From Arenicellales bacterium (GTDB taxonomy: Bacteria; Pseudomonadota; Gammaproteobacteria; Arenicellales; JAANXG01): a DNA stretch of 64,000 nucleotides. This document shows positions 5,154 to 55,937 of the stretch, piece by piece; position 1 is the first letter of the stretch; every line of letters starts with the position of its first letter. The position numbers and the translations under genes were made by a program. The notes under the pieces were generated by a model. The model did not search any database. It saw only the letters and a list, made by a program, of their open reading frames with translations, and was not told the origin of the DNA. The stretch covers positions 2,232,368-2,296,367 of the forward strand of contig OZ244194.1 in the NCBI GenBank assembly GCA_965216665.1. The letters are read 5' to 3'.

Positions 5154-5215
5154 AACTGCTTGTCATGGCCCTACACAGGGGGCGTTCACACACCAAAGGC
5201 GAATGGAGAACCAGC

Positions 5216-6445
5216 ATGACCAAACTCGATCCTACTCCGACGGGTCGTCGGGAATTTATGAAAGTCGCAGGTCGATACGGGCTCACGTCCACAGTCATCG
5301 CCGCGGCGGGCCTCGGCGGGACCGCGACGCTGTCCGAACTGGCCCGCGCCGCCGAACACACGAAATCGAAGCGAGCAGCCACCACCCCCAAATTCGAATT
5401 GAAATTCGGGGCATCCGGTTTCAACGAGACCAACCTCGATATCCAGAAGTCGGGACAATTGTTCTTCGCCCAAGACCTCGAGGAGCGCACCGACGGCGCG
5501 GTACGAGTCGAATTCATCGGCAGCAATCAGTTGTGCGGTCAATTGAATTGCGTAAAGAAAACCCAGCAGGGCATCGTCGACGTATATTCCGCGTCGACAC
5601 AGAATTCTGCGGGCGGCGCCCCTTACCTGAATGTTCTCGATTACGCGTACATGTTTCCGTCACGCGCGTCCCAGTATCACTTCTTCTACCATCCGAAAAG
5701 CGAAGAAATCCTGCGCAAACCTTTGCGCGAACGCCACAAGATCCAGTTTCTGTTCACCCACTGTGAGCTTCGCGGAATCATGCTCGGGTTGAAATGGAAA
5801 GATAAGCCGCTGGTCAAGTCGGTGGAGGATTTGGCCGGCACCAAAAACCGGGTGACGGGCACACAGCTCGGGCGCATCGCAATGCAGTTGATGAACCTGA
5901 ACCCGGTGCCGATCGCCTGGGAGGAGACGTTGGACGGATTGAAACAAGGTTTGATCGACGGTGCAGAGACGTGGATGGGCGCCGTCGCGTACGCGGGCAT
6001 GTCCCCGGTGGTATCCCAAGCTGTGGACCTGAAGTTCTTTTGTGGAACGGAGCACACCGCCATGAGCCTGCCGGTATTTGAGAAACTCGGTAGTGACCTG
6101 CAGGAAGCGGTCATGGAGTCGGCTTATACCGCGCAGGTGTATGTCCAGGGGATGCACGAAGCGGCGCTTTACGACATCGTTGGCGGCACCAATCCGCAAA
6201 AACCCGGAACGGTTTTCGCCGAACACGGCGTGAAGGTCGCCTCCCTTTCTGACGAGGAAATCAAGAAGGCCGAGCAGATGTGCTCACCCGAGTTCAATCC
6301 CGAGCCCTGGAGCGAATGGCGCGAACGCCTGGACAAGTGGTCGGGAGGCCAGGATACGTACAAGGTTATCTATGATATCGCCAGGGAGATTCCCACGGAT
6401 CTACCTACCGTCAACGTCAAGCCGCGGCGTTGGTGGAAGGCGTAG
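5216..6445 (+). CDS. dctP: TRAP transporter substrate-binding protein (DctP family) with a twin-arginine signal
   Basis: MTKLDPTPTGRREFMKVAGRYGLTSTVIAAAGLGG is Tat-like. It is followed by dctQ and dctM. GGAGA SD precedes ATG 5216. Confidence 0.8.
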   Translation: MTKLDPTPTGRREFMKVAGRYGLTSTVIAAAGLGGTATLSELARAAEHTKSKRAATTPKFELKFGASGFNETNLDIQKSGQLFFAQDLEERTDGAVRVEFIGSNQLCGQLNCVKKTQQGIVDVYSASTQNSAGGAPYLNVLDYAYMFPSRASQYHFFYHPKSEEILRKPLRERHKIQFLFTHCELRGIMLGLKWKDKPLVKSVEDLAGTKNRVTGTQLGRIAMQLMNLNPVPIAWEETLDGLKQGLIDGAETWMGAVAYAGMSPVVSQAVDLKFFCGTEHTAMSLPVFEKLGSDLQEAVMESAYTAQVYVQGMHEAALYDIVGGTNPQKPGTVFAEHGVKVASLSDEEIKKAEQMCSPEFNPEPWSEWRERLDKWSGGQDTYKVIYDIAREIPTDLPTVNVKPRRWWKA

Positions 6446-6520
6446 CATAAGTAATGGTGAGCGGGGACCGAATCGGTCCCCGTTTTTCCACACAAACCTT
6501 TCACCAAAGGGGATGAGAGC

Positions 6521-7048
6521 ATGAATCCAATCAAGCTCGTTTTCCGCTGGCTGGACAACAACATCGAGAAAGTGATCCTGCTGGTCAGTTATACCGGAAT
6601 GGCAGGCATCATCTTCGTGGAAGTCGTGCGGCGGTTTGCGTTGAACCAACAGGCGCCATGGAGCAGTACCATCCCGGTGCTGCTCTTTTTGTGGGTCACC
6701 TGGTTCGGCGCAGCCTCCAATATTCGCAACCGCAGCCATTTGTCACTCAACGAAGTTCGTTTGCGACTGCCCTATGCGGCGCAGTTTGCCTGCCTGATTC
6801 TGGATGCGGTGCTGTGGATCATATTCGCTGCCATCGTGATCTATTTCTGCTCCGAACAAGTGGCACTGGCCAGGGACAACTTCGCGATCGTCGAAGGCAC
6901 GGACAACGTTATGCAATGGTGGTTCTATCTCGCCACTCCACTCGCCTGGGCGCTGCTGGTGATCCGAGTTCTGCAGAACCTTTGGGAGGACTTACATCGC
7001 TTCCGCGCTGGAGAGCCATTTGTCCTGCAACCGACATTGCTGGAATGA
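6521..7048 (+). CDS. dctQ: TRAP transporter small permease (DctQ family)
   Basis: 175 aa with four hydrophobic segments, positioned between dctP and dctM. Confidence 0.85.
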   Translation: MNPIKLVFRWLDNNIEKVILLVSYTGMAGIIFVEVVRRFALNQQAPWSSTIPVLLFLWVTWFGAASNIRNRSHLSLNEVRLRLPYAAQFACLILDAVLWIIFAAIVIYFCSEQVALARDNFAIVEGTDNVMQWWFYLATPLAWALLVIRVLQNLWEDLHRFRAGEPFVLQPTLLE

Positions 7049-7063
7049 GGGGAGGAATAATCG

Positions 7064-8353
7064 ATGAGTGATGGCGCTCTTATCGCGCTCACGTCGATCG
7101 GCGTGACGATACTTTTCATTTTCGGCGTTCCGATCTTTCTAGTGATCGGGTTTTGGATCGTTGGGGTCAGTTTGATCATCGACTTCACGCTCGCCAACGT
7201 CGGAGTTACCCTGTTTGAAGGACTCAACTTCTTCGGTCTTCTTGCCCTACCGCTATTCATCCTGACCGGCGACTTGATCAACGCGGCGGGCATTGCCAAA
7301 CGATTGTCCGATTTCGCTTACTCGGTGCTGGGATGGATACGCGGCGGGATGGGCCTTGCCACCATAGGCGCCTGCGGGCTGTTCGCCGCGATTTCGGGAT
7401 CAAACTCCGGTACAACGGCCACCATCGGGTCGATCATGTATCCGGAGATGAGAGAGAACGGTTACGACAAACACTTCGCCGCGGCGACTGCAGCGGCCGG
7501 GGGAACAGTCGGAATCATCATTCCACCCAGCATTATTTTCATCGTCTACGGATTTCTGCTCAATCTGCCGATCAGCGATTTGTTCATCGGCGGAATGCTG
7601 CCCGGCATATTGATGCTGCTGGCGATGATGGTGGCGTGCATCGTCATGTCGTGGCGGAACAACTGGGGCACAATCCTGGCGTGGAACACGAAATACATTG
7701 CTCGCTGCGCGGGTAAGGCTTACCTGGGATTCATTGCCATCGGTATCGTGTTGTACGGCATTTACTCCGGTAAGTTCTCCCCCACTGAGGCAGCCGGCGT
7801 CACAGTCGGATTTTGTCTCTTGGCCGGAGTATTGATCACGCGCGAGATCAGCCTTCGTTCTCTCCCGTCCGTGGTGCTTCGCTCGGCACAGATCAACGGC
7901 ATGCTGGCCCCGCTGATTGCGGTATCGGTGGTCATGCAACAGATACTGTCGCTACTTGGGGTCGGCGAAGTCGTCACCGAATGGGTAACCGGCCTCGGCG
8001 GTTACGCCATCATCCTTCTGACCTGCATGTTCCTGGTATTGGCCGCCGGCACCGTGCTCGAGAGTCTGCCGAACACGATTATTCTCGCGCCGATCCTCGC
8101 CCCCATCGCATACAGCATCGGGGTCGATCCGATTCATTTTGCGGTCATTTTCCTGGTCGGTGATGCGATCGGTTTCATCACGCCGCCTTACGGCCTCAAT
8201 CTTTATGTAGCCAGCGGCATTACGGGAATTCCGTATTTCAGATTGTTGAAGTACTCGATGCCGTACTTGCTCGCCCTGCTGATCGCGTGGTTCATCATCG
8301 CCTTCTGGCCGCCGCTCTCGACCTACCTCTTAAGTTTCGGAGGGGTCGGCTGA
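7064..8353 (+). CDS. dctM: TRAP transporter large permease (DctM family)
   Basis: 429-aa polytopic membrane protein with the typical DctM N-terminus ...LALPLFILTGDLINAAGIAKRL.... Confidence 0.9.
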   Translation: MSDGALIALTSIGVTILFIFGVPIFLVIGFWIVGVSLIIDFTLANVGVTLFEGLNFFGLLALPLFILTGDLINAAGIAKRLSDFAYSVLGWIRGGMGLATIGACGLFAAISGSNSGTTATIGSIMYPEMRENGYDKHFAAATAAAGGTVGIIIPPSIIFIVYGFLLNLPISDLFIGGMLPGILMLLAMMVACIVMSWRNNWGTILAWNTKYIARCAGKAYLGFIAIGIVLYGIYSGKFSPTEAAGVTVGFCLLAGVLITREISLRSLPSVVLRSAQINGMLAPLIAVSVVMQQILSLLGVGEVVTEWVTGLGGYAIILLTCMFLVLAAGTVLESLPNTIILAPILAPIAYSIGVDPIHFAVIFLVGDAIGFITPPYGLNLYVASGITGIPYFRLLKYSMPYLLALLIAWFIIAFWPPLSTYLLSFGGVG

Positions 8354-8378: not shown

Positions 8379-9182
8379 ATGAGCAGCGATAAGATCCCGC
8401 CCGTTATGCGGGGTCTTATCGTTGCGGAGAGTATTGCCGCAGCGGGGCGCCCGGTGACCGGTACCGAGCTCGAAGAAATGCTGGGTATTCCCAGACAGAC
8501 GATCCACCGTATCGCTCTTCGACTCGAGGGTCAGGGTTTCATACAGCGCGAACCCGGAGGCAGAAGATTCGTCGCCGGCCCGCGCGCCCGGCGGCTGGCG
8601 ATCAATATCCACGCCAATTCCGTGTTCAGCGCTCCACGCCACGCGGTGCTGCGGTCTCTGGCTGAAGAAGTCAACGAGACTTGCAACTGCACGCTACTCG
8701 ATGGCGGTGAGATCGTCTATTTCGACCGCGTGGAGGCCAATTGGCCGCATCGAATTCAGTTGCCCGCCGGGTCGCGGCACCCGCTTCACTGTACGGCGAG
8801 TGGAAAACTTTTCCTCGCTTACTCAGACGCGGCGCGCCGCAAACGTTTATTGTCCGGGGCGCGCCTCGAAAAGTACACCGAGCGAACCATCACCGATGTC
8901 GACGCGCTGATTCATGAACTGGCGCGAATCAAAGACCGGGGCGTCGGGACGGATAACGAGGAATATCTCGCGGGCATGGTGGCGATCGCCGTCCCCGTAT
9001 TCGATCAGGACACGAACATCTACCACACGGTGGCCGTGCACGCCCCGACAATCCGTATTTCCTTTCAACGGTTACTACGATTTCTTCCAGCACTGCGCCG
9101 CGCTACCAGCGCATTGTCGGATCTGTATAGTGAAGAGAGAAAATCCGTTGGCTTGGCACGGCTTGCGAAGGTCGGACGGTAA
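8379..9182 (+). CDS. IclR family transcriptional regulator
   Basis: N-terminal wHTH (GRPVTGTELEEMLGIPRQTIHRIALRLEGQGFI) plus an IclR effector domain (...LHCTASGKLFLAY...EEYLAGMVAIAVPV...). Confidence 0.85.
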   Translation: MSSDKIPPVMRGLIVAESIAAAGRPVTGTELEEMLGIPRQTIHRIALRLEGQGFIQREPGGRRFVAGPRARRLAINIHANSVFSAPRHAVLRSLAEEVNETCNCTLLDGGEIVYFDRVEANWPHRIQLPAGSRHPLHCTASGKLFLAYSDAARRKRLLSGARLEKYTERTITDVDALIHELARIKDRGVGTDNEEYLAGMVAIAVPVFDQDTNIYHTVAVHAPTIRISFQRLLRFLPALRRATSALSDLYSEERKSVGLARLAKVGR

Positions 9183-9217: not shown

Positions 9218-10825
9218 CTATTGCAGGAATTCCAGCAGCCTGTTTACCGTACCGCCGAAATCGTCATGCCGATACGTTACCGAGTGGTACGACGCGATTT
9301 TCGAGATCTCATCCGGGAGCGCATCGCTTTCTGGAAACGTAAAACGCGGTAGTAGTACCGGGACCACATTACGCCGGGTACGTATCGCGTGGGCGATTTC
9401 CCTTCGCAACCAGTCATCCGGCTGTGCACAGGCGTCCAACGCACGCTCGTTCAGCAACACGATGAAATGGGGGGCGGTCGAGATGCGATTCATGAGCGCC
9501 GGTTCGAACGGTCCCGCCCGTAAACTTTCTACGTCCAGAAAGATGTCGTACTCACCCTTTAACGCCTCGCGAAGCGCTTGCGCGATCTCCGAACCGCCAT
9601 CCCGACGGTAGCTCATGAATATGTCGTGTCTTGCGCCCGCGAACAGATGATAGCGGTCGAAGTCATCCTCAATATGTTTCATTCGGAATGGCTCCAACTT
9701 TTCGACGTCAACCCACGACAGGTCCCGCGCTTCCCCCAGTTCTCGGTAAACGAGCTGATCGCACAGAATTCGTTTACCTCTCCGGGCTTGATTGGCCAGC
9801 GCCGACGCAAAGTTCACCGCCCTCCCGATGACGGTGAAGTCGAAACACTTGCTGCGACCGATTCGACCCACAATGATCTTATCCTCGTCATCCGTAGCCA
9901 GACCGACGCCAACGTCCAGATAGTCGAGGTTTTCGCGGGTTTCTTCGTCCCACTGGGTTCGGAGAACGCCAAATTCCTCGATGATCGAAAACGCGGTGCC
10001 CACCGCGTCGACGAGCTGATCTGCACCGCGAAAAATAGCAATCATCCCGTCCCCCATCAGCTTGTTGACGATACCGCTGTGGGCAATCACCTGTTCGGTC
10101 AACACTCTGAAAAATTCGTCGAGGCAGCGTTTGATTTCCGTGGGCGACTTGGACTGGCAGAGTTTGCTGAATCCACGCATATCGGCGACGAGTAAGGTGA
10201 GCTTTTCGGCTACGGCACGATGCTGCTCCTCACCGGTCAAAAGCGGCAGATAGTCCGCACGCACCGCCGGCTGCGCAAACAAGCCGCTGCTACCCAACAT
10301 TTGTTCATAGAGTTCGGCGTTTCGAATGGACAACGCCGCTTGGTCTGCAAAGCGGGTCATGAGCTCCAGATCGCGTTTCCCGTAGGGCTTTCGGCCCCCC
10401 GACTTATTAATGATCTGCATCACGCCCTTGGCCTCGCCACGATGTACGAGCGGCACGCATATCATCGCCTTGGTCGAAAATTCCGTCTCGCGGTCGACGG
10501 ATTCGTAATACTCGGTCAAATGATTTTCGACCTCGGGCTCGCCTTTGGAGAACACCTTGCCGGCGAAACTCCCTTCCACGGGTACGCGCACGTCATGAAG
10601 CTCTTCGGCGACCGGTCCGTTGGCCGCGGCAAAGTAAAGATCCTCCCTGTCCGGGTCAAACAACAAAACCGAACCGGCCTCGGAATCGGCCAGGCGACAC
10701 GCGAGATCAAGTATATGGTCCAAGACCTCCTCGAGAGTCCGCATACGGTTCAGATGCGTCGCCGCATCCAGCAGGGCAAGCAACTCTTCACGCTCGAGCA
10801 AGGTGGTCGCGGAAGTATCGGTCAT
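9218..10825 (-). CDS. GAF / class III nucleotidyl-cyclase homology domain / TIR domain fusion protein
   Basis: GAF spans about aa 28-175. The cyclase domain spans about aa 205-375 (LLVAD215MRGF, NK255LMGD259G, VIGRAVN338FASA342L). The TIR domain spans about aa 399-535 (HDIFMSYRRDG, HFIVLLN, DWLRRE476IAHAI). Confidence 0.8.
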   Translation of the reverse strand: MTDTSATTLLEREELLALLDAATHLNRMRTLEEVLDHILDLACRLADSEAGSVLLFDPDREDLYFAAANGPVAEELHDVRVPVEGSFAGKVFSKGEPEVENHLTEYYESVDRETEFSTKAMICVPLVHRGEAKGVMQIINKSGGRKPYGKRDLELMTRFADQAALSIRNAELYEQMLGSSGLFAQPAVRADYLPLLTGEEQHRAVAEKLTLLVADMRGFSKLCQSKSPTEIKRCLDEFFRVLTEQVIAHSGIVNKLMGDGMIAIFRGADQLVDAVGTAFSIIEEFGVLRTQWDEETRENLDYLDVGVGLATDDEDKIIVGRIGRSKCFDFTVIGRAVNFASALANQARRGKRILCDQLVYRELGEARDLSWVDVEKLEPFRMKHIEDDFDRYHLFAGARHDIFMSYRRDGGSEIAQALREALKGEYDIFLDVESLRAGPFEPALMNRISTAPHFIVLLNERALDACAQPDDWLRREIAHAIRTRRNVVPVLLPRFTFPESDALPDEISKIASYHSVTYRHDDFGGTVNRLLEFLQ

Positions 10826-11149
10826 GGCCGCTAGCGATCGCCGGTTTTCGGTGTACGATAGACATTATCATGCAACCGAAGGGCGTGATACGCAATCACT
10901 CGCTCAAAGTGCACCAGGCCGTAATGGGATTGCACGCGCGCGGTCCGTGCCGACCGGCGCGGCGGTAGGCAACGGTCGAATCCTGGCGCTATCGGCGACA
11001 CGCTCGCGCAACCGTAAGGGCGCCCGGCTGCCTTGCACCCACGCACCGCGTCCCTGTCATCGTCCTGGTGCCGGCTCTTTTTCCGAGTTCAGGTTGTCAA
11101 GCCCGCACCTCACCACTAGACTAACCCGAGCGCCTTGCCCGAACCACGC

Positions 11150-12640
11150 ATGAAAAGTCGCCCCGATGACATCATGTGGGATCAGCTTTTCGATCTCTCA
11201 TCCAGCCGCGGAATCAGCCTACAGGGCCAGCTGAGGGAACAACTGGTTACCGCGATTCTTGACGGCCATATCCCCCGAAATCAACCCATACCCTCCTCCC
11301 GCGAGCTGGCAAAACAGCTTGACGTCGGACGCAACACTGTCGTACTCGCCTATCAGCATCTGGTGGATGAAGGCTTTCTTATTCCACAGGAACGCCGCGG
11401 CTATTACGTCAACCCGGACATACTCACGGGAAGAGTACAGCGCGTCGAAAAACAACGCTCCGGCGGTTCGAAACCGGCCTGGGAGAAACGTTTTGCCTTC
11501 CTACCGTCTGTACAACGGAACATCAAGAAACCCCACAATTGGCAGGAGCTGCGCTATCCGTTCATTTACGGTCAACCCGATCCGAGCCTGGTTCCCGTCG
11601 CCGACTGGCGGGAGTGCTGCCGCCAAGTACTGAACGTGAATACGATTGTGGAGACGTCACAGGATCATTTTGACCACGACGATCCACTGCTGGTAGAGCA
11701 GATACTGTCGCGCGTACTGCCACGACGCGGTATCTGGGCCTCCCCGGATGAGATACTCGTCACCCTGGGAACCCAACATGCTTTGTATCTGATCGCGAGC
11801 TTGCTGATTTCGGGATCCGACACCGTCGGTTTCGAAGAACCGGGCTATCCCGATGCACGTAACATCTTCCTGAGGCGCACTCCTAACGTGGTTCCCATCG
11901 ACGTTGACGCGAGCGGCCTGGTGGTGAACGATGTCCTAGACCGATGCGATTACGTGTATGTAACACCGAGCCACCAGTCCCCCACGACCATTACATTGTC
12001 CGCGCAGCGCCGCGCCGATCTCCTGGCACGGGCGGACCGCGCGGATTTCATCATCATTGAAGACGACTACGAAAGCGAGACGAATTTCGTCGGCCAGCCG
12101 ACCCCGGCGTTGAAAAGCCTGGACAGCAGCGATCGGGTGATCTACGTGGGCAGCCTGTCGAAGACCGTCGCCCCCGGCCTGCGTGTCGGATTCATGGTCG
12201 GGCCGGCGGAGTTGATACGGGAGGCGCGCGCCCAGAGACGACTGATGTTACGGCATCCGCCCACGAACAACCAAAGGATCCTCGGACTGTTTTTGTCTCT
12301 CGGCCACCACGACTCACTGATCGCGCGGCTCAGCCACCACTACCGCCAACGCTGGTTGACTATGGCGGCGGCCTTGGAAAAGCATTTGCCCGAATCGACC
12401 CGGGTACCGAGTTTCGGCGGAACGGCCTTCTGGGTCAAAGGGCCCGACACCCTGGATGCCAACGACTTGTACGAACGCGCATTGAAAGCCAGCATCCTGA
12501 TCGAACCCGGCGACGTTCATTTCATGGCTCCGGATCCGCCGAAGCACTTTTTCCGTCTCGGTTTCTCGGCAATCCCCGCGGACCGCATCGAAGCGGGTAT
12601 TGAGAGAATCGCGGGGCTCATCCGCGACACTGCCGGCTAG
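11150..12640 (+). CDS. MocR/PdxR-type GntR regulator (wHTH plus fold-type I aminotransferase-like domain)
   Basis: GntR HTH PIPSSRELAKQLDVGRNTVVLAYQHLVDEGFL. PLP-lysine context VIYVGSLSKTVAPGLRVGF. I chose ATG 11150; the ORF opens at TTG 11135. Confidence 0.85.
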   Translation: MKSRPDDIMWDQLFDLSSSRGISLQGQLREQLVTAILDGHIPRNQPIPSSRELAKQLDVGRNTVVLAYQHLVDEGFLIPQERRGYYVNPDILTGRVQRVEKQRSGGSKPAWEKRFAFLPSVQRNIKKPHNWQELRYPFIYGQPDPSLVPVADWRECCRQVLNVNTIVETSQDHFDHDDPLLVEQILSRVLPRRGIWASPDEILVTLGTQHALYLIASLLISGSDTVGFEEPGYPDARNIFLRRTPNVVPIDVDASGLVVNDVLDRCDYVYVTPSHQSPTTITLSAQRRADLLARADRADFIIIEDDYESETNFVGQPTPALKSLDSSDRVIYVGSLSKTVAPGLRVGFMVGPAELIREARAQRRLMLRHPPTNNQRILGLFLSLGHHDSLIARLSHHYRQRWLTMAAALEKHLPESTRVPSFGGTAFWVKGPDTLDANDLYERALKASILIEPGDVHFMAPDPPKHFFRLGFSAIPADRIEAGIERIAGLIRDTAG

Positions 12641-12698: not shown

Positions 12699-13184
12699 CT
12701 ACTTGGGCGGCAGGGGCACGACCAGTACCGGCACCGTCGCATTGTTCAACACACTCTTCGCCACGCTGCCGATGAAGGTGCTCATAAATCCCTTTTCGTG
12801 CGTCCCCATCACGATCAAATCGCAATCCACGCTTCGTTTCACGATCTCTTCGACCGGATAGGATTCACTCACATCTACCGATACGATTTTCTCCCGTAAT
12901 CGTCGGTCGTCTCCCGCTAGGCTCGCGACAAAATCGTCCAGGCACTGAGTCAGCAGCTTTTGCGCAGTCGTTACTCGTTCGTTCAGTATTCGGTCGCGCT
13001 CGTCTTCATCCAGCACGTACGACTCCAGCGTAATTTTCGCGTCGTGGGAGAGCCTCTCAACGACGTGCAGCACGTGTATGTCGGCGCCGGTTTTCTTTGC
13101 CAGCCATATGGCGTAACGCAACGCGGGCAACGAATTATCCGACATGTCGGTGGCGTAAAGTATGTTTCGCACGTCAGGCAGCAT
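12699..13184 (-). CDS. universal stress protein (UspA family)
   Basis: ILYATDMSDNS...ADIHVLHVV...CDLIVMGTHEKGFMSTFIGSVAKSVLNNATVPVLVV. Confidence 0.85.
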   Translation of the reverse strand: MLPDVRNILYATDMSDNSLPALRYAIWLAKKTGADIHVLHVVERLSHDAKITLESYVLDEDERDRILNERVTTAQKLLTQCLDDFVASLAGDDRRLREKIVSVDVSESYPVEEIVKRSVDCDLIVMGTHEKGFMSTFIGSVAKSVLNNATVPVLVVPLPPK

Positions 13185-13211: not shown

Positions 13212-14552
13212 CTAATAACCGAGGGCCCTGGGCAACCACAGTGAAATTTCTGGAACGTAGGCAATAACAAAGATCGCAATCACCGAAACGATGGCAAACG
13301 GTATCGCCTTCACCGAAATATCTTCGATCGTGGATCCTCCGATACCGGAAGCCACAAACAGATTTTCGCCCAGTGGAGGGGTCTGAAAACCGATTGCGAG
13401 CGTCGCCACCATGACCACACCGAAATGAACCGGGTCGACGCCCAGATTGTACATAATCGGCAGCAGAACCGGGGTCAGGATCATAATGGTTGCCAATGTC
13501 TCCATGAACATGCCGACGAACAGCAGAAACGCGATGATCAATGCCCAGATCACATACATGTTGTCGGTGAAGTCGAGCAGCGCCGCGGCGACGATCGCAG
13601 GAATCTGGTTCTCTACGAGTAAGCGGCCGAATACCGTGGCAGTGAACAAGATCAACAGGACGCGACCGGATATCCAGGTAGTGGTCTCCAAGGTGTGAAA
13701 CGTTTCCTTCAACTTCAGTTCCTTGTGGATGAATACACCAACGAACAAGGTGTAAAAGATCGCGACGATGGCCGCTTCCGTAGGGGTAAAAAAACCACTA
13801 TAGATTCCACCCAGGATGATGAGCGGCGCGAGCATGGACCAGACCCCCTGCTTCAGGGTGGCGCCTATGTCTGCGAAGGACCAGCTCTCGGTGATTCCTT
13901 TGTACCCGCGCTTGGCGGACCGAATGTGATTCATGATCAGAACGCCCGCGGCGATCACGAATGCGGGGAAAAATCCGGCAATGAATAGCTTGGGAATCGA
14001 CAGAGACTGGAACTCACCGAACTTTTCCACGGCTTCCGGGGGCGGTTGCAAGCCCAGGCCGGATATCCCGAATATCACCATCGGTATCGACGGCGGGATC
14101 ACCACACCCAAACCTCCCGAAGACGCGGTTACCGCCGAGGCGTAACCGCGATCATATCCCCGGTTCACCATCGCCGGGATCATCAACATACCCACTGCCG
14201 CCGTGGTGGCGGGGCCGGAACCGGAAATGGCGCCGAAAAATATGCACGCGAACACGGTCGCCGCTCCCAGCCCACCGGTCACCGGTCCGGCCACGCTTTC
14301 GGCGACATTGACCAGCCGTTTTGAAATACCCGCGGCTTCCATCAGGGCGCCCGCCAGGATAAACGCCGGTAGCGCCATGAGCGGGAACGAACCGACCGAG
14401 GTAAAGGCGATCTGTACGAACTTGATTGGATTCTCACCCAGGTACATGAACGCCGCAAGCGCCGAGACACCGAGCGACACTGTAATCGGCGCACCGAGTA
14501 GCAACAAGAAAATGAAGGCGCCGAACAATATCCAAACTACTGTAGTTTCCAT
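13212..14552 (-). CDS. dctM: TRAP transporter large permease (DctM family)
   Basis: 446-aa polytopic protein with DctM-type sequence (...MALPAFILAGALMEAAGISKRL...). Confidence 0.9.
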   Translation of the reverse strand: METTVVWILFGAFIFLLLLGAPITVSLGVSALAAFMYLGENPIKFVQIAFTSVGSFPLMALPAFILAGALMEAAGISKRLVNVAESVAGPVTGGLGAATVFACIFFGAISGSGPATTAAVGMLMIPAMVNRGYDRGYASAVTASSGGLGVVIPPSIPMVIFGISGLGLQPPPEAVEKFGEFQSLSIPKLFIAGFFPAFVIAAGVLIMNHIRSAKRGYKGITESWSFADIGATLKQGVWSMLAPLIILGGIYSGFFTPTEAAIVAIFYTLFVGVFIHKELKLKETFHTLETTTWISGRVLLILFTATVFGRLLVENQIPAIVAAALLDFTDNMYVIWALIIAFLLFVGMFMETLATIMILTPVLLPIMYNLGVDPVHFGVVMVATLAIGFQTPPLGENLFVASGIGGSTIEDISVKAIPFAIVSVIAIFVIAYVPEISLWLPRALGY

Positions 14553-14567
14553 CGTGGCGACCCTCCT

Positions 14568-15158
14568 TTAACGCTTACCGGCATCCCGGCTCTCGGCTTT
14601 CACCGGTTCCGGTTGCTCACCTTCCACCATTAGGTCCACCATGTGCTCCCGTTCCGCCTGTTCGGGATCGCGGAGGTCGATGCCCTTCACGAGCTTCAGA
14701 TAATTTACCTGAACGATTCGGATCGACATAATGGCGAACGCAATGGGCAGAATCATGTAGATGTACTTCATCGGGACGCCCAAAGTCTGCGATTTCCAGA
14801 ACAGGTTCATCTTGTTGAACACAAAATCGTAACTCAGGTATACGAAGTACAAGTTGAAACACAACCATATGAAGTCGGCAATTGCTTCGCACACTGTGGC
14901 GACAATCGGAGGTAGGGCCTTGAATTGGAACGTGACCCGATTGTGGGCCGCCATTTTTGCAGCGTGACTGGCGCCGAAGAACGCGAACCAGACGAACAAA
15001 TACGTTGCGAGTTCTTCGCCCCACGGAATGGAGTATTCGAAAAACTCACGCGATACGATCTGGACGAACAACAACGTTACGAAAAATGCGAGCAGTGCCC
15101 GGCAAATGTACGTTTCTATGTTGTTCAGGATCGTAGAGAACACGTTGGAACTCGCCAT
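14568..15158 (-). CDS. dctQ: TRAP transporter small permease (DctQ family)
   Basis: Hydrophobic and located between dctP and dctM. GGAGGG SD precedes ATG 15158; the ORF opens at 15179. Confidence 0.8.
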   Translation of the reverse strand: MASSNVFSTILNNIETYICRALLAFFVTLLFVQIVSREFFEYSIPWGEELATYLFVWFAFFGASHAAKMAAHNRVTFQFKALPPIVATVCEAIADFIWLCFNLYFVYLSYDFVFNKMNLFWKSQTLGVPMKYIYMILPIAFAIMSIRIVQVNYLKLVKGIDLRDPEQAEREHMVDLMVEGEQPEPVKAESRDAGKR

Positions 15159-15241
15159 CACCACGCCCTCCGGTAACAAGGGCGCGCCCTGCCGGCCAGC
15201 CGGCGGGTAGAGCGCGCCCTCATGCGGACCCTAAGCCCGAC

Positions 15242-16249
15242 TCAGCCGCGACCCAGCAGTTTGAGTACTCGATCGAGTTTTTCTTTACCGCCTATGCTGT
15301 CGTAGTACTTCGGCCATACTTCTTGGGTGGCCTTCTCGATCCACGCCTTTTCCCCGTCGGCCGGATCGGAAATTTCCATGCCCTTTTCGGCCAACTCTTT
15401 GCGAATCGCTTCCTCGGTCTCGGCCAGATACTTGGCGCTGTGCTCAGTGGCCGCTTTACCGGCCTCCAGAATCGCCTTTTGCACATCCTCGGACTGACTC
15501 TGAAAAACCGACTCACTCACGATGAGCGGCTCGAGCGAGAATATGTACCGGATATTGGTGATGTACTTCTGCACCTCGTAGAACTTCATCGCGTGGACGG
15601 TGATGTAGGGATTATCCTGCCCGTCGACCACCTTTTGTTGCAACGCGGTGAAGGTCTCCGACCACGCCATCGGCGTCGGGTTGACACCCCACGCTTGGTA
15701 CGTGGCGATCATGATCTCGTTCTTTGGCACCCGGACGATCACCCCTTGCAGATCGTCGACGGATTTGATCGGTTTCTTCGAGTTGGTCAGCACACGAAAT
15801 CCGGAGTACGCCCAGCCGATGATCCTCACCCCGGCGTCGCGAATCGTGTTCTCGACCAACTCCTGACCCACCTCTCCCTGGGTCAGTTTGATCGCCTCAT
15901 CCAGGCTTTGAATCACGTAAGGCATGGTGAAAACGCCCACGGTTGGAGAGAACGGCGTGATGTTGTTGATCGCCAGCACGGAGAAATCCAGGGTGCCGAT
16001 GGAGGCGTCGTTCACCGTATCCTGCTCGCTCCCCAACTGACCGTTCGGAAACATGTTGATATCGTGCTTCCCGCCGGTTTTTTCCTTGAACAGCTCGACG
16101 AATTTCGAGCCCATCTCCCACTGTGTGCCGCCTTGCGCGTCGCCGAGAGCCATTTTGAACGTCTTGGCCATCACGGCGGAGCTCGAGAAAACCAACACCA
16201 CAGCGGCCACGCCGAAAATCCTACCAACCTGTCGTTGCAATCGCATCAC
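15242..16249 (-). CDS. dctP: TRAP transporter substrate-binding protein (DctP family)
   Basis: Signal peptide MMRLQRQVGRIFGVAAVVLVFSSSAVMA. DctP-type core includes VIVRVPKNE (carboxylate-binding Arg context). GGAGG SD. Confidence 0.85.
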   Translation of the reverse strand: MMRLQRQVGRIFGVAAVVLVFSSSAVMAKTFKMALGDAQGGTQWEMGSKFVELFKEKTGGKHDINMFPNGQLGSEQDTVNDASIGTLDFSVLAINNITPFSPTVGVFTMPYVIQSLDEAIKLTQGEVGQELVENTIRDAGVRIIGWAYSGFRVLTNSKKPIKSVDDLQGVIVRVPKNEIMIATYQAWGVNPTPMAWSETFTALQQKVVDGQDNPYITVHAMKFYEVQKYITNIRYIFSLEPLIVSESVFQSQSEDVQKAILEAGKAATEHSAKYLAETEEAIRKELAEKGMEISDPADGEKAWIEKATQEVWPKYYDSIGGKEKLDRVLKLLGRG

Positions 16250-21137: not shown

Positions 21138-22391
21138 CTACATGAAAATGCCCTTGAACACGTAGAAAAACAAGACCGCAAGTAGGCCCCCCGCTGGAAG
21201 AGTCACGATCCACGACATAAAGATATTTCGCACCACGGTGAGATTCAGGGCACCGATACCGCGTGCAATACCGACGCCTAGTACGGCGCCCACCAGGGTA
21301 TGCGTTGTGGAGATCGGCAAACCGGTACCGGATGCGAGCACAACTGTTGTCGCCGCCGCCAACGTCGCAGCGAACCCGCGGCTCGGCGTCAACTCAGTGA
21401 TGTTGTTCCCTACCGTGGCTATCACACGACGCCCGTACATCAGCAGGCCCAGCACGATTCCGGCGCCGCCGATGAGCAGAATCCACGGTGCCAGCAAGGC
21501 CTTTTGACCAAGCTGTCCACCGCTCTTGACCACGCTTACCACCGCGGCAAGCGGCCCCACCGCATTGGCCACGTCATTCGACCCGTGGGCGAACGCCATA
21601 GCACAGGCGGTAACGACCATGAGTACGGCAAAGACTTTTTCCACATTGGCGAAGTGAAACTGTTTGTTCGACGCCGGATCGATTTCTATTTTTTGAATTC
21701 GCCAATACCCGATAGCCATGATCGCCGCGCCGACTGCCACGGAGATAGCCAGGCTCTCGAACGCCGAAAACCCCAGCCCAACGTGTTTCAGACCCTTGAG
21801 CAACGTCACCAGCGCAATAATAAAACCGACCAGGAAGATATATATCGGGACGTACTTTTTGGCGTTTCTGAATGGTTCTTCCGTCCCCAGAATCAGTCTT
21901 TGTACGCTGCCGAACAACACAAAAGCCAGCGTGCCCGCCAGTAACGGCGACACTACCCAACTACTCACTATCGAACCGATTTTCTCCCATCGAACCGCTT
22001 CCATTCCGATTCCGGCCACGGCAAACCCGACGATGGCGCCGACGATGGAGTGGGTGGTCGACACAGGCCAACCGTATGTCGACGCCACCAGCAACCATAT
22101 TCCGGCCGCCAGCAATGACGCGAGCATCCCGAATATCAGATACTCCGGCGTACCGCTCAATACGCCGACATCGATAATCCCCTTCCTGATGGTGGCAGTC
22201 ACCTCACCACCGGCGAGAAACGCGCCCAAGAACTCAAACACGGCAGCGATGACAATCGCTTGCTTTATCGTCAGCGCGGTAGAGCCGACAGAGGTAGCCA
22301 TGGCGTTCGCCACGTCGTTTGCCCCAATTCCCCACGCCATGAACAAACCGAACACCGCGGCAAGGATGAGATAGACCGTGCCGTGATCCAT
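21138..22391 (-). CDS. pit: inorganic phosphate transporter, PiT family
   Basis: MDHGTVYLILAAVFGLFMAWGIGANDVANAM and a second GSNDVANAVGP repeat. Start set at ATG 22391, just downstream of the DUF47 gene. Confidence 0.9.
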   Translation of the reverse strand: MDHGTVYLILAAVFGLFMAWGIGANDVANAMATSVGSTALTIKQAIVIAAVFEFLGAFLAGGEVTATIRKGIIDVGVLSGTPEYLIFGMLASLLAAGIWLLVASTYGWPVSTTHSIVGAIVGFAVAGIGMEAVRWEKIGSIVSSWVVSPLLAGTLAFVLFGSVQRLILGTEEPFRNAKKYVPIYIFLVGFIIALVTLLKGLKHVGLGFSAFESLAISVAVGAAIMAIGYWRIQKIEIDPASNKQFHFANVEKVFAVLMVVTACAMAFAHGSNDVANAVGPLAAVVSVVKSGGQLGQKALLAPWILLIGGAGIVLGLLMYGRRVIATVGNNITELTPSRGFAATLAAATTVVLASGTGLPISTTHTLVGAVLGVGIARGIGALNLTVVRNIFMSWIVTLPAGGLLAVLFFYVFKGIFM

Positions 22392-22402
22392 GGCTAACTC
22401 GG

Positions 22403-23083
22403 CTATCGCGCCAACAGATATTCGAGCCGGCTGCCCACCCGCTGTGCCAAATCCGCGATCTCCCCCACCCACTCAATGACTTGGTAGAGAAATATGACCC
22501 TGACCGGAGACAGCGTTTCCTCTACCTCGAACAGTCGCGCACGCAACGTCACCTGCTTATCGTCCGTTTCCTTCTCGATCTTGTCCAATTCCTTGATCAT
22601 GGACTGCACTAAATCGACCTCCGCACCGCGAAACCCTGTTTCTATCAACTCGTCAAGCTCGTTGATGGCAATTTGCGCCTGCTCGGTCGCGTCGGCGGAA
22701 CGCCGCACGAAATACAGCAGATCCTTCTTCAAGGTCTCCGGGAATTCCATGCGTCGTCCCAGCATTAATCCAGCGATATCTTTGGCCTTATTCGCGACGA
22801 GATCCTGAATACGCAACATCTCCAACAGATCCACTCTGGATACCGGCATGAAAATGCCCCTGGGCAGGTGCAGCCGGATGGCTTTCTTGAGCTCATCGGC
22901 CTCGTTTTCGAGCGCCCCAATACGACTCTGGATGGATTCCGCCGCCTCCCAGTCCTGGCGGCATACCGCCTCAAAGAATTCCACCAGTTGTCGCGTGCAC
23001 TCGCTCACCTTTCCCATGTGCTGTTGCATGGGTTCCACCGGGGAACTTCCGAATATGCGCGCGAGGTAACTTTTTCGAGCCAT
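22403..23083 (-). CDS. DUF47/TIGR00153 family Pit-accessory (PhoU-like) protein
   Basis: MARKSYLARIFGSSPVEPMQQHMGKV... is the typical N-terminus. It lies immediately upstream of pit. Confidence 0.8.
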   Translation of the reverse strand: MARKSYLARIFGSSPVEPMQQHMGKVSECTRQLVEFFEAVCRQDWEAAESIQSRIGALENEADELKKAIRLHLPRGIFMPVSRVDLLEMLRIQDLVANKAKDIAGLMLGRRMEFPETLKKDLLYFVRRSADATEQAQIAINELDELIETGFRGAEVDLVQSMIKELDKIEKETDDKQVTLRARLFEVEETLSPVRVIFLYQVIEWVGEIADLAQRVGSRLEYLLAR

Positions 23084-25114: not shown

Positions 25115-27274
25115 CTAAAACTTGCCGTAGTAGCCTTCTTTGAGCGCATCGAAAAGGTTGGCCGCAGTATGCGTTTCTCCATCGTAGTCGATTTCTTCGT
25201 CACCCCGCGCGGTGATGACAGTACCGTCTTCCAGCACAAACTCATACACCGTGTTCGCCAGATCGCGTTCCTGTACCAACACCCCCTGAAACGCCTCTGG
25301 GTTGAAGCGGAATGTCGTGCAACCTTTAAGGCCCTGGTCATAGGCATAAAGGTAGACGTCCTTGAACGCGTCAAATGCGAAACCGGTGGGCACGTTGGCG
25401 GTCTTGGAGATGGACGAATCAATCCATTTCTGCGCCGCCGCCTGGATATCCACGTGTTCCTTCGGCGTAATGTCGTCGACGGAGGTAAAGTAGTCGGGCA
25501 GCGCGTGATCCGCGTCGGAAGCGTCCGGCACGGCTTCGGGGTCTACGAGAGCGCGGTAGGCCAATAGCTCGTAGGAGTATACCTCGACTTTGTCTTTCGT
25601 CTTTTTCCCTTCGCGGATCAGATTGCGGTAGTAGGCGTGCGCAAAACTGGGCTCGATGCCATTGCTCGCGTTATTCGCCAGCGCCAACGAAATCGTGCCG
25701 CTGGGGGCGATGGAACTGTGGTGGGTAAACCGCGCGCCGACCTCCGCAAGTTCAGCGACCAGCTCCGGCTCTATCGACGCCAACCGCTGCATATATCGGC
25801 TGTAGCGTGCGTGCAGGACCTTACCCCGCACCTCATCGCCTTCCCGGTAGCCGTCCTTCTTCATTTCCGGACGCCGAGCCAGCATGCCCCGCGTCACAGT
25901 GAAAGCCTGGTCCAGAAGCGGGGCCGGGCCTTTCTCCTTCGTCAGCGCCAAGGCCTGCTTCCAGCCGGTAACAGCCAGCTCACGCGACACACGCTCCGTG
26001 AATTCGATCGATTCCGGCCCGCCGTACCGCATCCGCAGCATCGCCAGGGCCGAACCCAGGCCGAGAAAACCCATTCCATGACGCCGCTTCTGGGCGATCT
26101 CCTCACGCTGTTCGGCGAGCGGCAAGCCGTTGATCTCTACCACATTGTCGAGTAAGCGCGTGAAGACGGCGACGATTTCGCGAAAGCGCTCCCAGTCGAA
26201 GCGCGCGTTCGGGGTGAAGGGGTCTTCGACGAACACGGTCAGGTTGATCGAGCCCAACAGGCAGGCGCCGTAGGGCGGCAGCGGTTGCTCGCCACATGGG
26301 TTGGTCGCACGCACCTCTTCGCAAAACCAGTTGTTGTTCATCTCGTTGATGCGGTCGATAAGAATGAACCCCGGCTCCGCGTAGTCGTAGGTCGACCTCA
26401 TGATCAAGTCCCACAATCGTCGCGCCTTGACGGTATGGTAAATGCGACACGCCACTCGGCCCGCGTCGTCGGCGATGTAACCGTCGTTGACAGGCCAGTT
26501 CCGCCACACGAACTTGTCGGCATCGTCAACATCCAGGTCCTCCTCCTGGACTTCCTGCTCCAGGACCGGGAACGCCAGCGGCCAGTCCGCGTCATCCTTT
26601 ACCGCTGTTACGAATTCGTCGGTGATCAACAACGACATGTTGAACTGCCGCAAACGGCCCTGCTCCCGTTTCGCGCGCACGAAGTCCACGACATCAGGGT
26701 GTCCAACATCGAACGTGGCCATTTGCGCACCGCGCCGCCCACCCGCCGAAGACACCGTGAAACACATACGGTCGTAAATGTCCATGAACGACAACGGGCC
26801 GGATGTATACGCCCCGGCGCCGGACACGTAGGCGCCCTTCGGACGCAGCGTAGAGAACTCGTACCCGACTCCGCATCCAGCTTTGAGCGTCAGACCCGCT
26901 TCATGCACGCGGCCCAGAATATCGTCCATGGAATCGTGTATCGTCCCGGAAACCGTGCAGTTGATGGTGGAAGTGGCGGGCTTTTCCGCCGCCGCACCGG
27001 CATTGGAGACGATGCGTCCGGCGGGAATCGCACCGTTACGCAACGCCCACAGGAACCGCTCGTACCAGGTCTCCCGGATCTCCTCGCGCTCGAGATCCGC
27101 CACCGTTCGCGCGACGCGCTTGAACGTATCATCCAGCGTTTCGTCTATCGCCCGCCCGTCTTTGCTGCACAAGCGATATTTCGTGTTCCACACGTCGCGC
27201 GAAACGGGTTGTAAAGCCACGCCGTTGGTCTTGTTATCGGTTTTCAGAGAAGCTTTGTTCATAAAGTCAGTCAC
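25115..27274 (-). CDS. nrdJa: class II (adenosylcobalamin-dependent) ribonucleotide reductase, large fragment NrdJa
   Basis: TNPCGEQPLPPYGACLLGSINL active-site loop, 719 aa. Confidence 0.9.
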   Translation of the reverse strand: MTDFMNKASLKTDNKTNGVALQPVSRDVWNTKYRLCSKDGRAIDETLDDTFKRVARTVADLEREEIRETWYERFLWALRNGAIPAGRIVSNAGAAAEKPATSTINCTVSGTIHDSMDDILGRVHEAGLTLKAGCGVGYEFSTLRPKGAYVSGAGAYTSGPLSFMDIYDRMCFTVSSAGGRRGAQMATFDVGHPDVVDFVRAKREQGRLRQFNMSLLITDEFVTAVKDDADWPLAFPVLEQEVQEEDLDVDDADKFVWRNWPVNDGYIADDAGRVACRIYHTVKARRLWDLIMRSTYDYAEPGFILIDRINEMNNNWFCEEVRATNPCGEQPLPPYGACLLGSINLTVFVEDPFTPNARFDWERFREIVAVFTRLLDNVVEINGLPLAEQREEIAQKRRHGMGFLGLGSALAMLRMRYGGPESIEFTERVSRELAVTGWKQALALTKEKGPAPLLDQAFTVTRGMLARRPEMKKDGYREGDEVRGKVLHARYSRYMQRLASIEPELVAELAEVGARFTHHSSIAPSGTISLALANNASNGIEPSFAHAYYRNLIREGKKTKDKVEVYSYELLAYRALVDPEAVPDASDADHALPDYFTSVDDITPKEHVDIQAAAQKWIDSSISKTANVPTGFAFDAFKDVYLYAYDQGLKGCTTFRFNPEAFQGVLVQERDLANTVYEFVLEDGTVITARGDEEIDYDGETHTAANLFDALKEGYYGKF

Positions 27275-32131: not shown

Positions 32132-32255
32132 CGCTCCTCCCGCTGTGAGTCTCGCAGCGCGACGCATCCTGCCCGTGAACCCCTCGCTCCCCTGAGTGCG
32201 CCCTTCTTAAGACTTGACGACTGCCATACCACTGCTGCGGCCCGGATTCCGCAAA

Positions 32256-33910: not shown

Positions 33911-34673
33911 GATCCTCTCCGGAGCTTGCCGGATACAGGGCTTGCCGGATCTCCGACCACAACAGGCGAAACGCGTGCGCGGCGGCGCCACGCGGGGCAA
34001 ACACGTCGACCGCGGCGCGCTGCGGGCCCATGCGCTCCACGTCCGCGGCGTACGGAACGAAACTGCGTAATACGCCGTCGGTGCGCTGCGGCAGGGTTTC
34101 CATTATTTCGCGATGCAATCGCTTGCGGCGATCTACCATGGAGAAAAACGGCAATACACGCAGATCCGCGTCGCGCGAACCGTACAGAAATTCGCGTAAC
34201 TGCCGCAAGGTACGCAGCGACAACGTCGTCGGAATGGTGGGGACCAACAGAGCGTCCGCGGCGCGAAACACGTTTTCCGAGACCAGCGAAATACTCGGTG
34301 CACAGTCCAAAAACACGTAGTCGTACTCGTCCTTGAGGGGCTTTAAGAGACTGCGCATATGTTTCTTGCGTTTCGTCTGGTCGTCGAGCACCAAATCCAG
34401 GTTGCGATGAGAAAAATCCGCGGGAACCAAATCGAGATTCGGATAGTCGGTGGCCTTGATGCGCCGCCTCAAGCCGTGCTTGTGCTCCAGCAGGCCCTCG
34501 CTCCCGCCTTTGAGTTTGGGTTTGATACGAAAGTAATAGGAGGCAGCGCCCTGCGGATCGAGATCCCAAACCAACGTGCGGGTACCCCCGAGCGCACTCA
34601 GATAGGCCAGATTCACCGCCGCCGCGGTCTTGCCGACACCGCCCTTGATGTTGTAAATCGCGAGTACTTTCAT
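33903..34673 (-). CDS. orphan ParA/MinD-family ATPase (deviant Walker A)
   Basis: MKVLAIYNIKGGVGKTAAAVNLAYL, ...YVFLDCAPS.... No ParB-like gene is adjacent. Confidence 0.85.
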   Translation of the reverse strand: MKVLAIYNIKGGVGKTAAAVNLAYLSALGGTRTLVWDLDPQGAASYYFRIKPKLKGGSEGLLEHKHGLRRRIKATDYPNLDLVPADFSHRNLDLVLDDQTKRKKHMRSLLKPLKDEYDYVFLDCAPSISLVSENVFRAADALLVPTIPTTLSLRTLRQLREFLYGSRDADLRVLPFFSMVDRRKRLHREIMETLPQRTDGVLRSFVPYAADVERMGPQRAAVDVFAPRGAAAHAFRLLWSEIRQALYPASSGEDHG

Positions 34674-55765: not shown

Positions 55766-55937
55766 CGTCGCAGTAAACCACTGTTCGCGCGGCCTGTACA
55801 AGGGCGTTCCGCACCGACGCCGCAACTGATAAAGTCGTACCGGGCGCACGAGGATCGCGCCGCTAAGCTGCGGTGACGGGTCCGAGCCCGATGTATTCGT
55901 TCCGGCAACCCGTGGCGCGGCACGGTCATCTCGAACC

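Follow-up and report, generated by a model that had tools for sequence, protein, structure and literature searches.

In a 64,000-nucleotide stretch of an Arenicellales bacterium genome (GenBank assembly GCA_965216665.1, contig OZ244194.1; hereafter the window), we identified an ATG-started open reading frame (ORF; 9218..10825, minus strand) that encodes a 535-aa protein combining a GAF domain, a class III cyclase-homology domain (CHD), and a TIR domain. The protein belongs to a rare family that is real, well defined, and uncharacterized. Based on the evidence described below, we give roughly even weight to the interpretation that it acts as a stand-alone, single-chain, cyclic-nucleotide-gated NAD+ hydrolase of the conflict or cell-suicide type, in which an attenuated or non-catalytic cyclase dimer would serve as the transducer. 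For a conflict or suicide role as such, we lean slightly in favor.

Domain architecture and residue conservation

The complete ORF, including its stop codon (9218-9220), encodes, in order, GAF, signaling helices, CHD, and SARM1-like TIR. All three domains exceeded the Pfam thresholds, with GAF_2 at aa 29-167 (E 5.8e-19, 69.1 bits, cut-off 28.6), Guanylate_cyc (PF00211) at aa 207-361 (E 1.1e-6, 28.8 bits, cut-off 21.9), and TIR_2 at aa 402-519 (E 5.9e-8, 33.7 bits, cut-off 28). An AlphaFold2 model of the monomer, built from the family alignment, had a mean pLDDT of 90 and a pTM of 0.75, and Foldseek searches with this model against the PDB recovered all three folds. The sensor-helix-cyclase layout of the model resembled that of the sensor-regulated cyclases 6fht and OaPAC. 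Pfam, the structure model, and Foldseek thus agreed on a GAF-cyclase-TIR fusion in one polypeptide, as had been proposed in a previous sequence-only reading of this DNA. The accompanying statement that the three modules are normally on separate proteins was too strong, because GAF-cyclase fusions are common, and only the addition of the TIR is unusual. A GAF and a cyclase share one chain in Anabaena CyaB2 (PDB 1ykd) and in the canonical GAF-cyclases P0201 and P0150.

For the TIR domain (aa 399-535, 9221..9631, minus strand), a phmmer search of all PDB sequences returned the SARM1 TIR as the top match (E 4.7e-24), aligned end to end over aa 397-535 and with DWLRRE476 placed on DWVHKE642 of SARM1. 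Foldseek superposed the domain on the human SARM1 TIR with a TM-score of 0.94 and a root-mean-square deviation (rmsd) of 1.2-1.3 Å, and the identity over the full length was 34-35% in both Foldseek and pairwise alignment. Residue mapping matched Y406, R407, R408, D431, G438, F440, W472, E476, and H520 to SARM1 Y568, R569, R570, D594, G601, F603, W638, E642, and H685, respectively, which we take to form the NAD+ site and BB-loop of SARM1. These nine equivalents were invariant in 31/31 family members carrying this TIR subtype. The sequence-only reading had assigned the TIR to the same nucleotides and its catalytic Glu to E476 (codon GAA, 9398-9400, minus strand); both coordinates were correct, E476 aligned with SARM1 E642, and the TIR fold was supported by profile and structure searches alike. 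By these comparisons, the domain is a SARM1-type TIR. Hydrolysis of NAD+ is strongly predicted because every NAD-site and BB-loop residue is conserved, and we consider NADase competence highly probable.

The resemblance to SARM1 therefore includes the catalytic Glu, the SYRR motif, the BB-loop D-x-x-x-x-x-x-G-x-F, the Trp preceding the Glu, and the C-terminal His, and it would extend to the principle that an N-terminal allosteric small-molecule sensor restrains a TIR NADase. In contrast to SARM1, the sensor is a GAF whose probable ligand is a cyclic nucleotide rather than NMN/NAD+, and oligomerization would depend on a cyclase-homology dimer instead of a SAM octamer. Orthology to SARM1 was rejected, since the N-terminal part consists of GAF and CHD and not of ARM-SAM-SAM; only the TIR domain is SARM1-like.

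The GAF domain (aa 28-175, 10301..10744, minus strand) was identified by GAF_2, PDB matches, and Foldseek. In the PDB search, the closest solved relatives of aa 1-185 were cAMP/cGMP-binding GAFs throughout, including Anabaena CyaB2 (1ykd, E 4e-16), the Lcd1-cAMP complex (5w10, E 1.7e-15), and PDE2A GAF-B (E 4.7e-13), along with PDE10A and PDE5. The model superposed on the GAF-cAMP complex of Lcd1 with a TM-score of 0.80. The segment EYYESVDRETEFSTKAMICVPL aligned with a segment of PDE2A, and both the hallmark motif [FY]xxxVDxxTx[FY]xTx[SN]xxCxP and the positions of the NK...[FY]xxxD motif were found. The pocket residues S52, A88/G89, Y107, D111, T114, T118, and Q137 aligned with S424, A459, Y481, D485, T488, T492, and E512 of PDE2A GAF-B, which are the cGMP contacts in its structure. 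The pocket was nearly invariant across 83 family members (Q137 in 83/83, D111 in 81/83, A88/G89 in 80/83), and its strand GVMQIINK, which contains Q137, resembles the CyaB2 strand GVTQLVNK. Judged from these alignments, the GAF is a member of the cyclic-nucleotide-binding (cNMP-binding) PDE/CyaB subfamily. A cyclic nucleotide is its best-supported candidate ligand, and we regard cNMP binding as moderately probable.

Between the GAF and the CHD lies a helical linker (aa 176-203, 10217..10300, minus strand; model helices at aa 150-182 and 186-197) that bears a conserved hinge, 'SSGL(Y/F)A', in which G181 is invariant and L182 is at least 90% conserved. The CHD that follows (aa 204-396, 9638..10216, minus strand) was defined by PF00211, by alignments to Cya2 (2w01) and P. 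aeruginosa CyaB (3r5g), and by Foldseek, which superposed it on 3r5g with a TM-score of 0.89 and an rmsd of 2.0 Å. In the two alignments, the metal-binding Asp residues correspond to D215 (10181-10183) and D259 (10049-10051), and the transition-state Asn to N338 (9812-9814). The base contacts are K255 (10061-10063), at the purine-specifying position, and T331 (9833-9835), opposite the Thr of CyaB. The conserved Lys of the C-terminal β-hairpin, which in canonical cyclases is the γ-phosphate Lys, is retained as K383 (all on the minus strand). At the position of the transition-state Arg of the VNLxxR motif, the protein has Ala (A342, 9800-9802, minus strand). The sequence-only reading had named D215, K255, D259, N338, and A342, each of which lies where it was placed, and its suggestion that A342 replaces the transition-state Arg was borne out by both alignments. 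It had also treated the G-R preceding VN as unusual; CyaB likewise has GREVN.

We then counted these residues in the core alignment of the 83 members. The metal-binding Asp residues were retained in 82/83 (D215) and 83/83 (D259), the base contacts in 80/83 (K255) and 83/83 (T/S331), R217 of the DxRGF triphosphate loop in 82/83, and N338 in 72/83, the Asn being lost in the other 11/83. Position 342 was occupied by Ala in 48 members, Ser in 12, His in 5, Tyr in 4, and other residues in the remainder, with Arg in only 1-2 of the 83. The transition-state Arg is thus absent from about 98% of the family, so that the Arg-to-Ala change is a defining trait and not, as it had first appeared, a quirk of this gene. 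For comparison, P0201, a canonical REC-GAF-GAF-cyclase relative, retains VNLAKRLQE, and Pfam cyclase scores within the family were 22-52 bits versus approximately 90 for canonical cyclases. Because the Arg position is not conserved, we refer to the domain as a cyclase-homology domain rather than as a demonstrated canonical cyclase. The CHD is not decaying, because its mean pairwise identity (58%) resembles those of the GAF (62%) and the TIR (63%) and its metal- and substrate-binding residues are kept; what selection maintains is NTP-metal binding and not the canonical transition-state chemistry. The purine-type Lys and Thr argue against a pyrimidine (cCMP/cUMP) product, as the base-contacting residues reported for pyrimidine cyclases differ from the K255/T331 type (PMC11224242).

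Two Arg residues were considered as replacements for the missing one. R348 is shared with canonical relatives and therefore belongs to the inherited framework. R266 (10028-10030, minus strand) is family-specific (70/83; G/N in canonical GAF-cyclases), and the β-hairpin geometry makes its reach to the phosphate unlikely. A second family-specific residue was D329 (9839-9841, minus strand), which is Asp in 71/83 members and Glu in 9 more, at a position occupied by N/E in canonical GAF-cyclases. R266 and D329 might have evolved together as a pair, situated close to either the base pocket or the interface of the dimer.

Family distribution, effector exchange, and genomic neighborhoods

A word-indexed search retrieved 37 relatives, which were 35-48% identical by BLASTP, and all of them had the GAF-CHD-TIR order except P0034, in which a SEFIR/TIR domain is N-terminal. 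When 1.84 billion representatives at 50% identity were searched exhaustively, approximately 40 single-stretch GAF-CHD(-X) representatives were found, while the other strong matches were mostly giant multi-GAF proteins. The giant proteins (P0105-P0249) number in the hundreds, are 1,000-3,700 aa long, and contain 6-15 tandem GAFs of the same cNMP-type subfamily. A scan of GTDB species representatives showed a sporadic spread over at least seven phyla or classes, with members in Gemmatimonadota, Planctomycetota, Bacteroidota, Acidobacteriota (Thermoanaerobaculia, Vicinamibacterales, and Terriglobales), Candidatus Thiodiazotropha, Thermodesulfovibrionia, Desulfuromonadales, and Alphaproteobacteria. 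The architecture is therefore rare and scattered. In agreement with the sequence-only reading, which knew of no characterized GAF-cyclase-TIR protein, we found none in the literature. The architecture was not described in the papers and supplements searched; a mention elsewhere, for example in Table S1 or Fig. 1 of the Pucsar preprint, is possible.

The effector variants share a common GAF-CHD core that is approximately 35-45% identical over aa 1-365. Attached to this core were the SARM1-like TIR and at least three other TIR_2 subtypes, N-terminal effectors of the SEFIR/TIR (P0034 and P0108), CHAT (P0116), and caspase (P0178) types, and C-terminal caspase (P0121) and EAD1 (L016, E 1.1e-20) domains, and P0111 consists of the core with no extra domain. 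The EAD1 variant, in which EAD1 replaces the TIR, is encoded at 9995-11539 of locus L016 in a Gemmataceae metagenome-assembled genome; no EAD1-bearing partner was found beside it among four neighbors, none of which had a Pfam match, on a contig that ends 0.6 kb downstream. On a neighbor-joining tree of the core, the effector types were interspersed.

TIR, caspase/CHAT, and EAD domains are signature effectors or adaptors of conflict systems (PMC7159879; Fig. 1 legend of the Pucsar preprint, 10.64898/2026.08.12.744502). In the conflict systems described by Kaur, Burroughs, and Aravind (eLife 2020, PMC7159879), cNMP cyclases, some of them predicted to be inactive, likewise occur with TIR, caspase, CHAT, and EAD. 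Effector swapping and a patchy distribution are also shared with these systems and with 'immune clade 1' of the Pucsar preprint. The systems of the eLife paper differ in being multi-gene, with vWA-MoxR-VMAP modules and STAND NTPases. A single-gene GAF-CHD-effector family was not described in the texts searched: the term 'GAF' had no occurrence in the preprint, and in the eLife paper it was listed only among several nucleotide-binding domains.

We then examined the neighborhoods of family members. The gene in the window is monocistronic and lies between a convergent IclR-family regulator gene and a divergent MocR/GntR regulator gene. No neighbor was common to three long metagenomic contexts of homologs, and no Pfam family recurred more than three times among 116 neighboring ORFs of 15 loci, through which PADLOC matches were scattered. 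A conserved operon partner or a defense island was sought in the window, the three long contexts, and the 116 neighbors, and neither was found. Since no neighbor recurs and no association with an island or a mobile element was detected, the gene is a stand-alone unit, and guilt-by-association evidence for anti-phage defense is absent.

A few of the 116 neighbors (L003-L083) matched PADLOC models of MADS (mad2, mad3, mad6, and mad8) and PD-T4-6, with E values down to 2e-59, and at least one family member may lie beside a defense system. In addition, the metagenomic contigs L081 and L082 carry an identical homolog (P0003) with the same upstream genes and differ downstream of 11602, where peptidase genes in L081 are replaced in L082 by genes for DDE transposases together with a weak SIR2 fragment. 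This arrangement suggests an IS-mediated rearrangement beside the P0003 homolog.

Proposed mechanism and alternatives

We propose that the GAF, the helices, and the CHD would hold the protein in a parallel dimer, as in its structural relatives. A cyclic purine nucleotide, most likely cAMP, would occupy the GAF pocket, and the signal would be relayed through the helices so as to close or re-orient the CHD dimer, which would bind NTP-Mg with slow or no turnover. The change in the CHD would drive higher-order association, allowing BB-loop-mediated composite TIR sites to form and NAD+ to be hydrolyzed, and the resulting NAD+ depletion would lead to growth arrest or death. As stated in the Pucsar preprint (10.64898/2026.08.12.744502), TIR NADases require ligand-driven oligomerization for their composite sites, and inactive cNMP cyclase domains, which may merely bind nucleotide, occur in conflict systems (PMC7159879). 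Because the core carries effectors of unrelated folds, at its N- or its C-terminus, activation by proximity is favored over an allosteric relay tied to one position, which suits this variation less well. To our knowledge, the GAF regulates the cyclase in every characterized GAF-cyclase, and the expected flow is therefore from GAF to CHD to effector and not from cyclase to receptor to TIR.

The protein resembles Anabaena CyaB1/CyaB2 in its N-terminal cNMP-type GAF, helical linker, class III CHD, and purine-type Lys/Thr. It differs from them in having one GAF in place of the GAF-GAF-PAS tandem, Ala in place of Arg, and an added C-terminal TIR, and in belonging to a rare, effector-swapping family rather than to housekeeping signaling. 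In CyaB1/CyaB2, the cyclase product can activate the GAF of that same protein. The CHD of our protein might similarly produce the ligand of its GAF, in which case positive feedback like that of CyaB1 would yield an all-or-none fuse; we hold this option to be plausible at somewhat below even weight. The more specific idea that the GAF-CHD core is a self-priming 'nucleotide fuse', in which the crippled cyclase would slowly make the ligand of its own GAF and act as a bistable trigger for whichever death effector is attached, seems unlikely to us. If true, a new class consisting of a single gene would be added to the cyclic-nucleotide systems of immunity or programmed death, and the protein would provide a bacterial model of an allosterically gated SARM1-type NADase.

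Pycsar, Pucsar, TIR-SAVED, and TIR-STING are currently understood as two-component cyclic-nucleotide-activated TIR NADases. A single chain with a sensor, a cyclase-like transducer, and an effector, together with natural effector swapping, offers a minimal system, amenable to genetics, in which to examine how TIRs or caspases are switched on by nucleotide signals. The human axon-degeneration enzyme SARM1 has in this TIR one of its closest bacterial relatives, and since the TIR lies under an N-terminal sensor, it could model gated SARM1-type catalysis. Moreover, the loss of the Arg with retention of the metal and substrate residues raises the question whether class III cyclase domains have been redeployed as switches that bind NTP and not as enzymes. 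The family merits experiments on three counts: its members are built as one chain, the TIR is of SARM1 grade, and the cyclase is crippled selectively.

Several observations weigh against the gated NAD+ hydrolase of conflict type. The evidence on the family comes from sequences and a predicted monomer structure, and the GAF ligand is inferred from sequence. PDE2A F438 and D439, the latter of which is implicated in telling cGMP from cAMP, lack a counterpart in this GAF, which makes its ligand specificity less certain. The loss of the Arg may merely lower kcat, as in characterized Arg mutants, in which case the CHD may be a real cyclase. The core tree on which the effector types are interspersed carries no support values. 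The gene lies outside any defense island, with transporters and regulators as neighbors, so that the support for an anti-phage function is weaker than usual; the sequence-only reading had also noted the lack of an island, and the window, the three metagenomic contexts, and the 15 loci agree with it. The family was absent from IMG/VR viral contigs and PLSDB plasmids, where only generic cyclase-domain matches were obtained. Finally, codon usage is native: the third-position GC content (GC3) is 0.675 compared with 0.66-0.76 in the neighbors, with a codon-usage cosine of 0.925. These two measures, which the sequence-only reading had suggested comparing with the flanking genes, gave no sign that this genome acquired the gene recently by horizontal transfer.

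An active cyclase would turn the scheme into Pycsar in cis, the main idea of the sequence-only reading, in which a trigger such as phage activates the cyclase. The cAMP or non-canonical cNMP thus made would then occupy a GAF, either in the molecule that produced it or in a neighboring one, and fire the TIR in a self-amplifying abortive infection. This alternative is consistent with the strong selection on every CHD residue that binds substrate or metal, with the cNMP-binding type of the GAF, and with the self-activation known from CyaB1/CyaB2, the CyaB2 GAF being among the best PDB matches; a cyclase coupled to a cNMP-activated TIR NADase is also a proven defense logic. However, the absence of the Arg from nearly the whole family and the loss of the Asn in some members argue against an efficient cyclase, no sensor of a phage cue is evident besides the GAF, the resemblance to PycC is generic, and no association with defense islands or mobile elements was found. 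We regard it as possible but doubtful.

Membership in Pycsar itself was rejected. Pycsar and Pucsar comprise a class III-type cyclase and a CNBD-TIR or transmembrane effector in an operon, with cNMP-driven TIR oligomerization (PMC11224242; 10.64898/2026.08.12.744502). With them, our protein shares the functional coupling of a class III-type cyclase domain, a receptor for cNMP, and a TIR NADase, as well as the expected activation of the TIR through ligand-driven oligomerization. It differs in being one polypeptide instead of two genes (PycC/PucC plus CNBD-TIR), in using a GAF instead of a CRP-like CNBD, in its purine/adenylate-type residues, and in lacking the transition-state Arg, an operon, and a defense island. 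In PADLOC, its best score against PycC models was 58 bits, and the canonical GAF-cyclases P0201 and P0150 outscored it (93 and 82 bits), which marks the match as generic. There is also no separate CNBD effector gene, since the receptor is a GAF within the same single gene and no partner recurs. Of the self-contained cyclic-nucleotide-to-TIR switch put forward in the sequence-only reading, the idea of the switch is thus strengthened by the cNMP-type GAF and the interchangeable death effectors, while the analogy to Pycsar does not hold as membership. The protein is better described as a variation on the known theme of cyclic nucleotide to TIR NADase rather than as a categorically new system.

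The gene's surroundings would suit a physiological, non-suicidal regulator that converts cAMP/cGMP status into controlled NAD+ turnover or ADPR/cADPR, for example in dormancy or a starvation shift. The gene is chromosomal, with native composition, and lies between two complete TRAP transporter operons (DctP/DctQ/DctM). The first of these (5165-8353, plus strand) is followed by the convergent IclR gene (8379-9182). On the other side, the divergent MocR/GntR-aminotransferase-type gene (11135-12640) is followed by a universal stress protein (Usp) gene (12699-13184) and the second TRAP operon (13212-16249, minus strand). Homologs also occur near housekeeping genes, with L31/RF-1 directly adjacent in one context and, in a second one, an mreBCD/PBP2/rodA block at a distance of 3.6-9 kb, and the absence from phage and plasmid collections points in the same direction. 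On the other hand, the rarity and the patchy spread over distant phyla suit a dispensable, horizontally moving conflict module better, and the TIR is exchanged for caspase, CHAT, SEFIR, and EAD1. SARM1-type TIRs are, in addition, potent depleters of NAD+. We therefore consider a physiological regulator quite unlikely.

A Thoeris-like signal generator, whose GAF-CHD part would sense infection or stress and whose TIR would make a cADPR isomer or another NAD-derived messenger for a separate effector, is very improbable. Bacterial TIRs can act as signal synthases (10.64898/2025.12.03.692087), and ThsB-type matches were obtained, although these were weak (PADLOC ThsB, 27 bits; NCBIfam Thoeris ThcB4, 37 bits against a cut-off of 220). 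The TIR is far nearer to SARM1 than to ThsB, sister proteins bear terminal effectors such as caspase and CHAT at the same position, and in the 15 genomes no candidate effector, whether ThsA-like, SLOG, Macro, or of another type, recurred next to the gene. Given these low scores and the lack of a recurrent effector, assignment to Thoeris, which pairs ThsB with an adjacent ThsA-type effector, was rejected. Lastly, an inert scaffold, in which the CHD binds nothing and serves only for dimerization, would fit the family-wide Arg loss and the low Pfam cyclase scores but is scarcely credible, since such a scaffold would not keep D215, D259, K255, T/S331, the DxRGF loop, and the hairpin Lys at the frequencies given above.

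Other features of the window

The gene shares a 309-bp intergenic region (10826..11134) with the divergent MocR/GntR-type gene, and this region presumably contains its promoter. No promoter was found there for the minus-strand gene; the lone sigma-70-like match (11094-11122) was on the plus strand and was no more than expected by chance. A terminator scan around the gene gave nothing above chance, and scans of the window for tRNA and Rfam families found none.

Elsewhere, the window contains chromosomal housekeeping genes, including those for an Lhr helicase and an SLT/LysM transglycosylase. Two genes for ribonucleotide reductase large subunits lie near one another, at 25115-27274 and 29258-32167 (both minus strand), and the larger product (969 aa) has two ATP-cone stretches. 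A loose phosphate/polyphosphate theme was also observed, comprising genes for a phosphate transporter of the PHO4 type (21138-22472), a CHAD-domain protein of 626 aa (34670-36550), and the polyphosphate kinase PPK1 (43528-45621). Finally, a 696-aa ORF at 55938-58028 (plus strand) had no Pfam match at E≤1e-5, and at its 5′ end it shares approximately 80 nt with the start of the divergent gene for a 1519-aa Lhr-type helicase (51458-56017).

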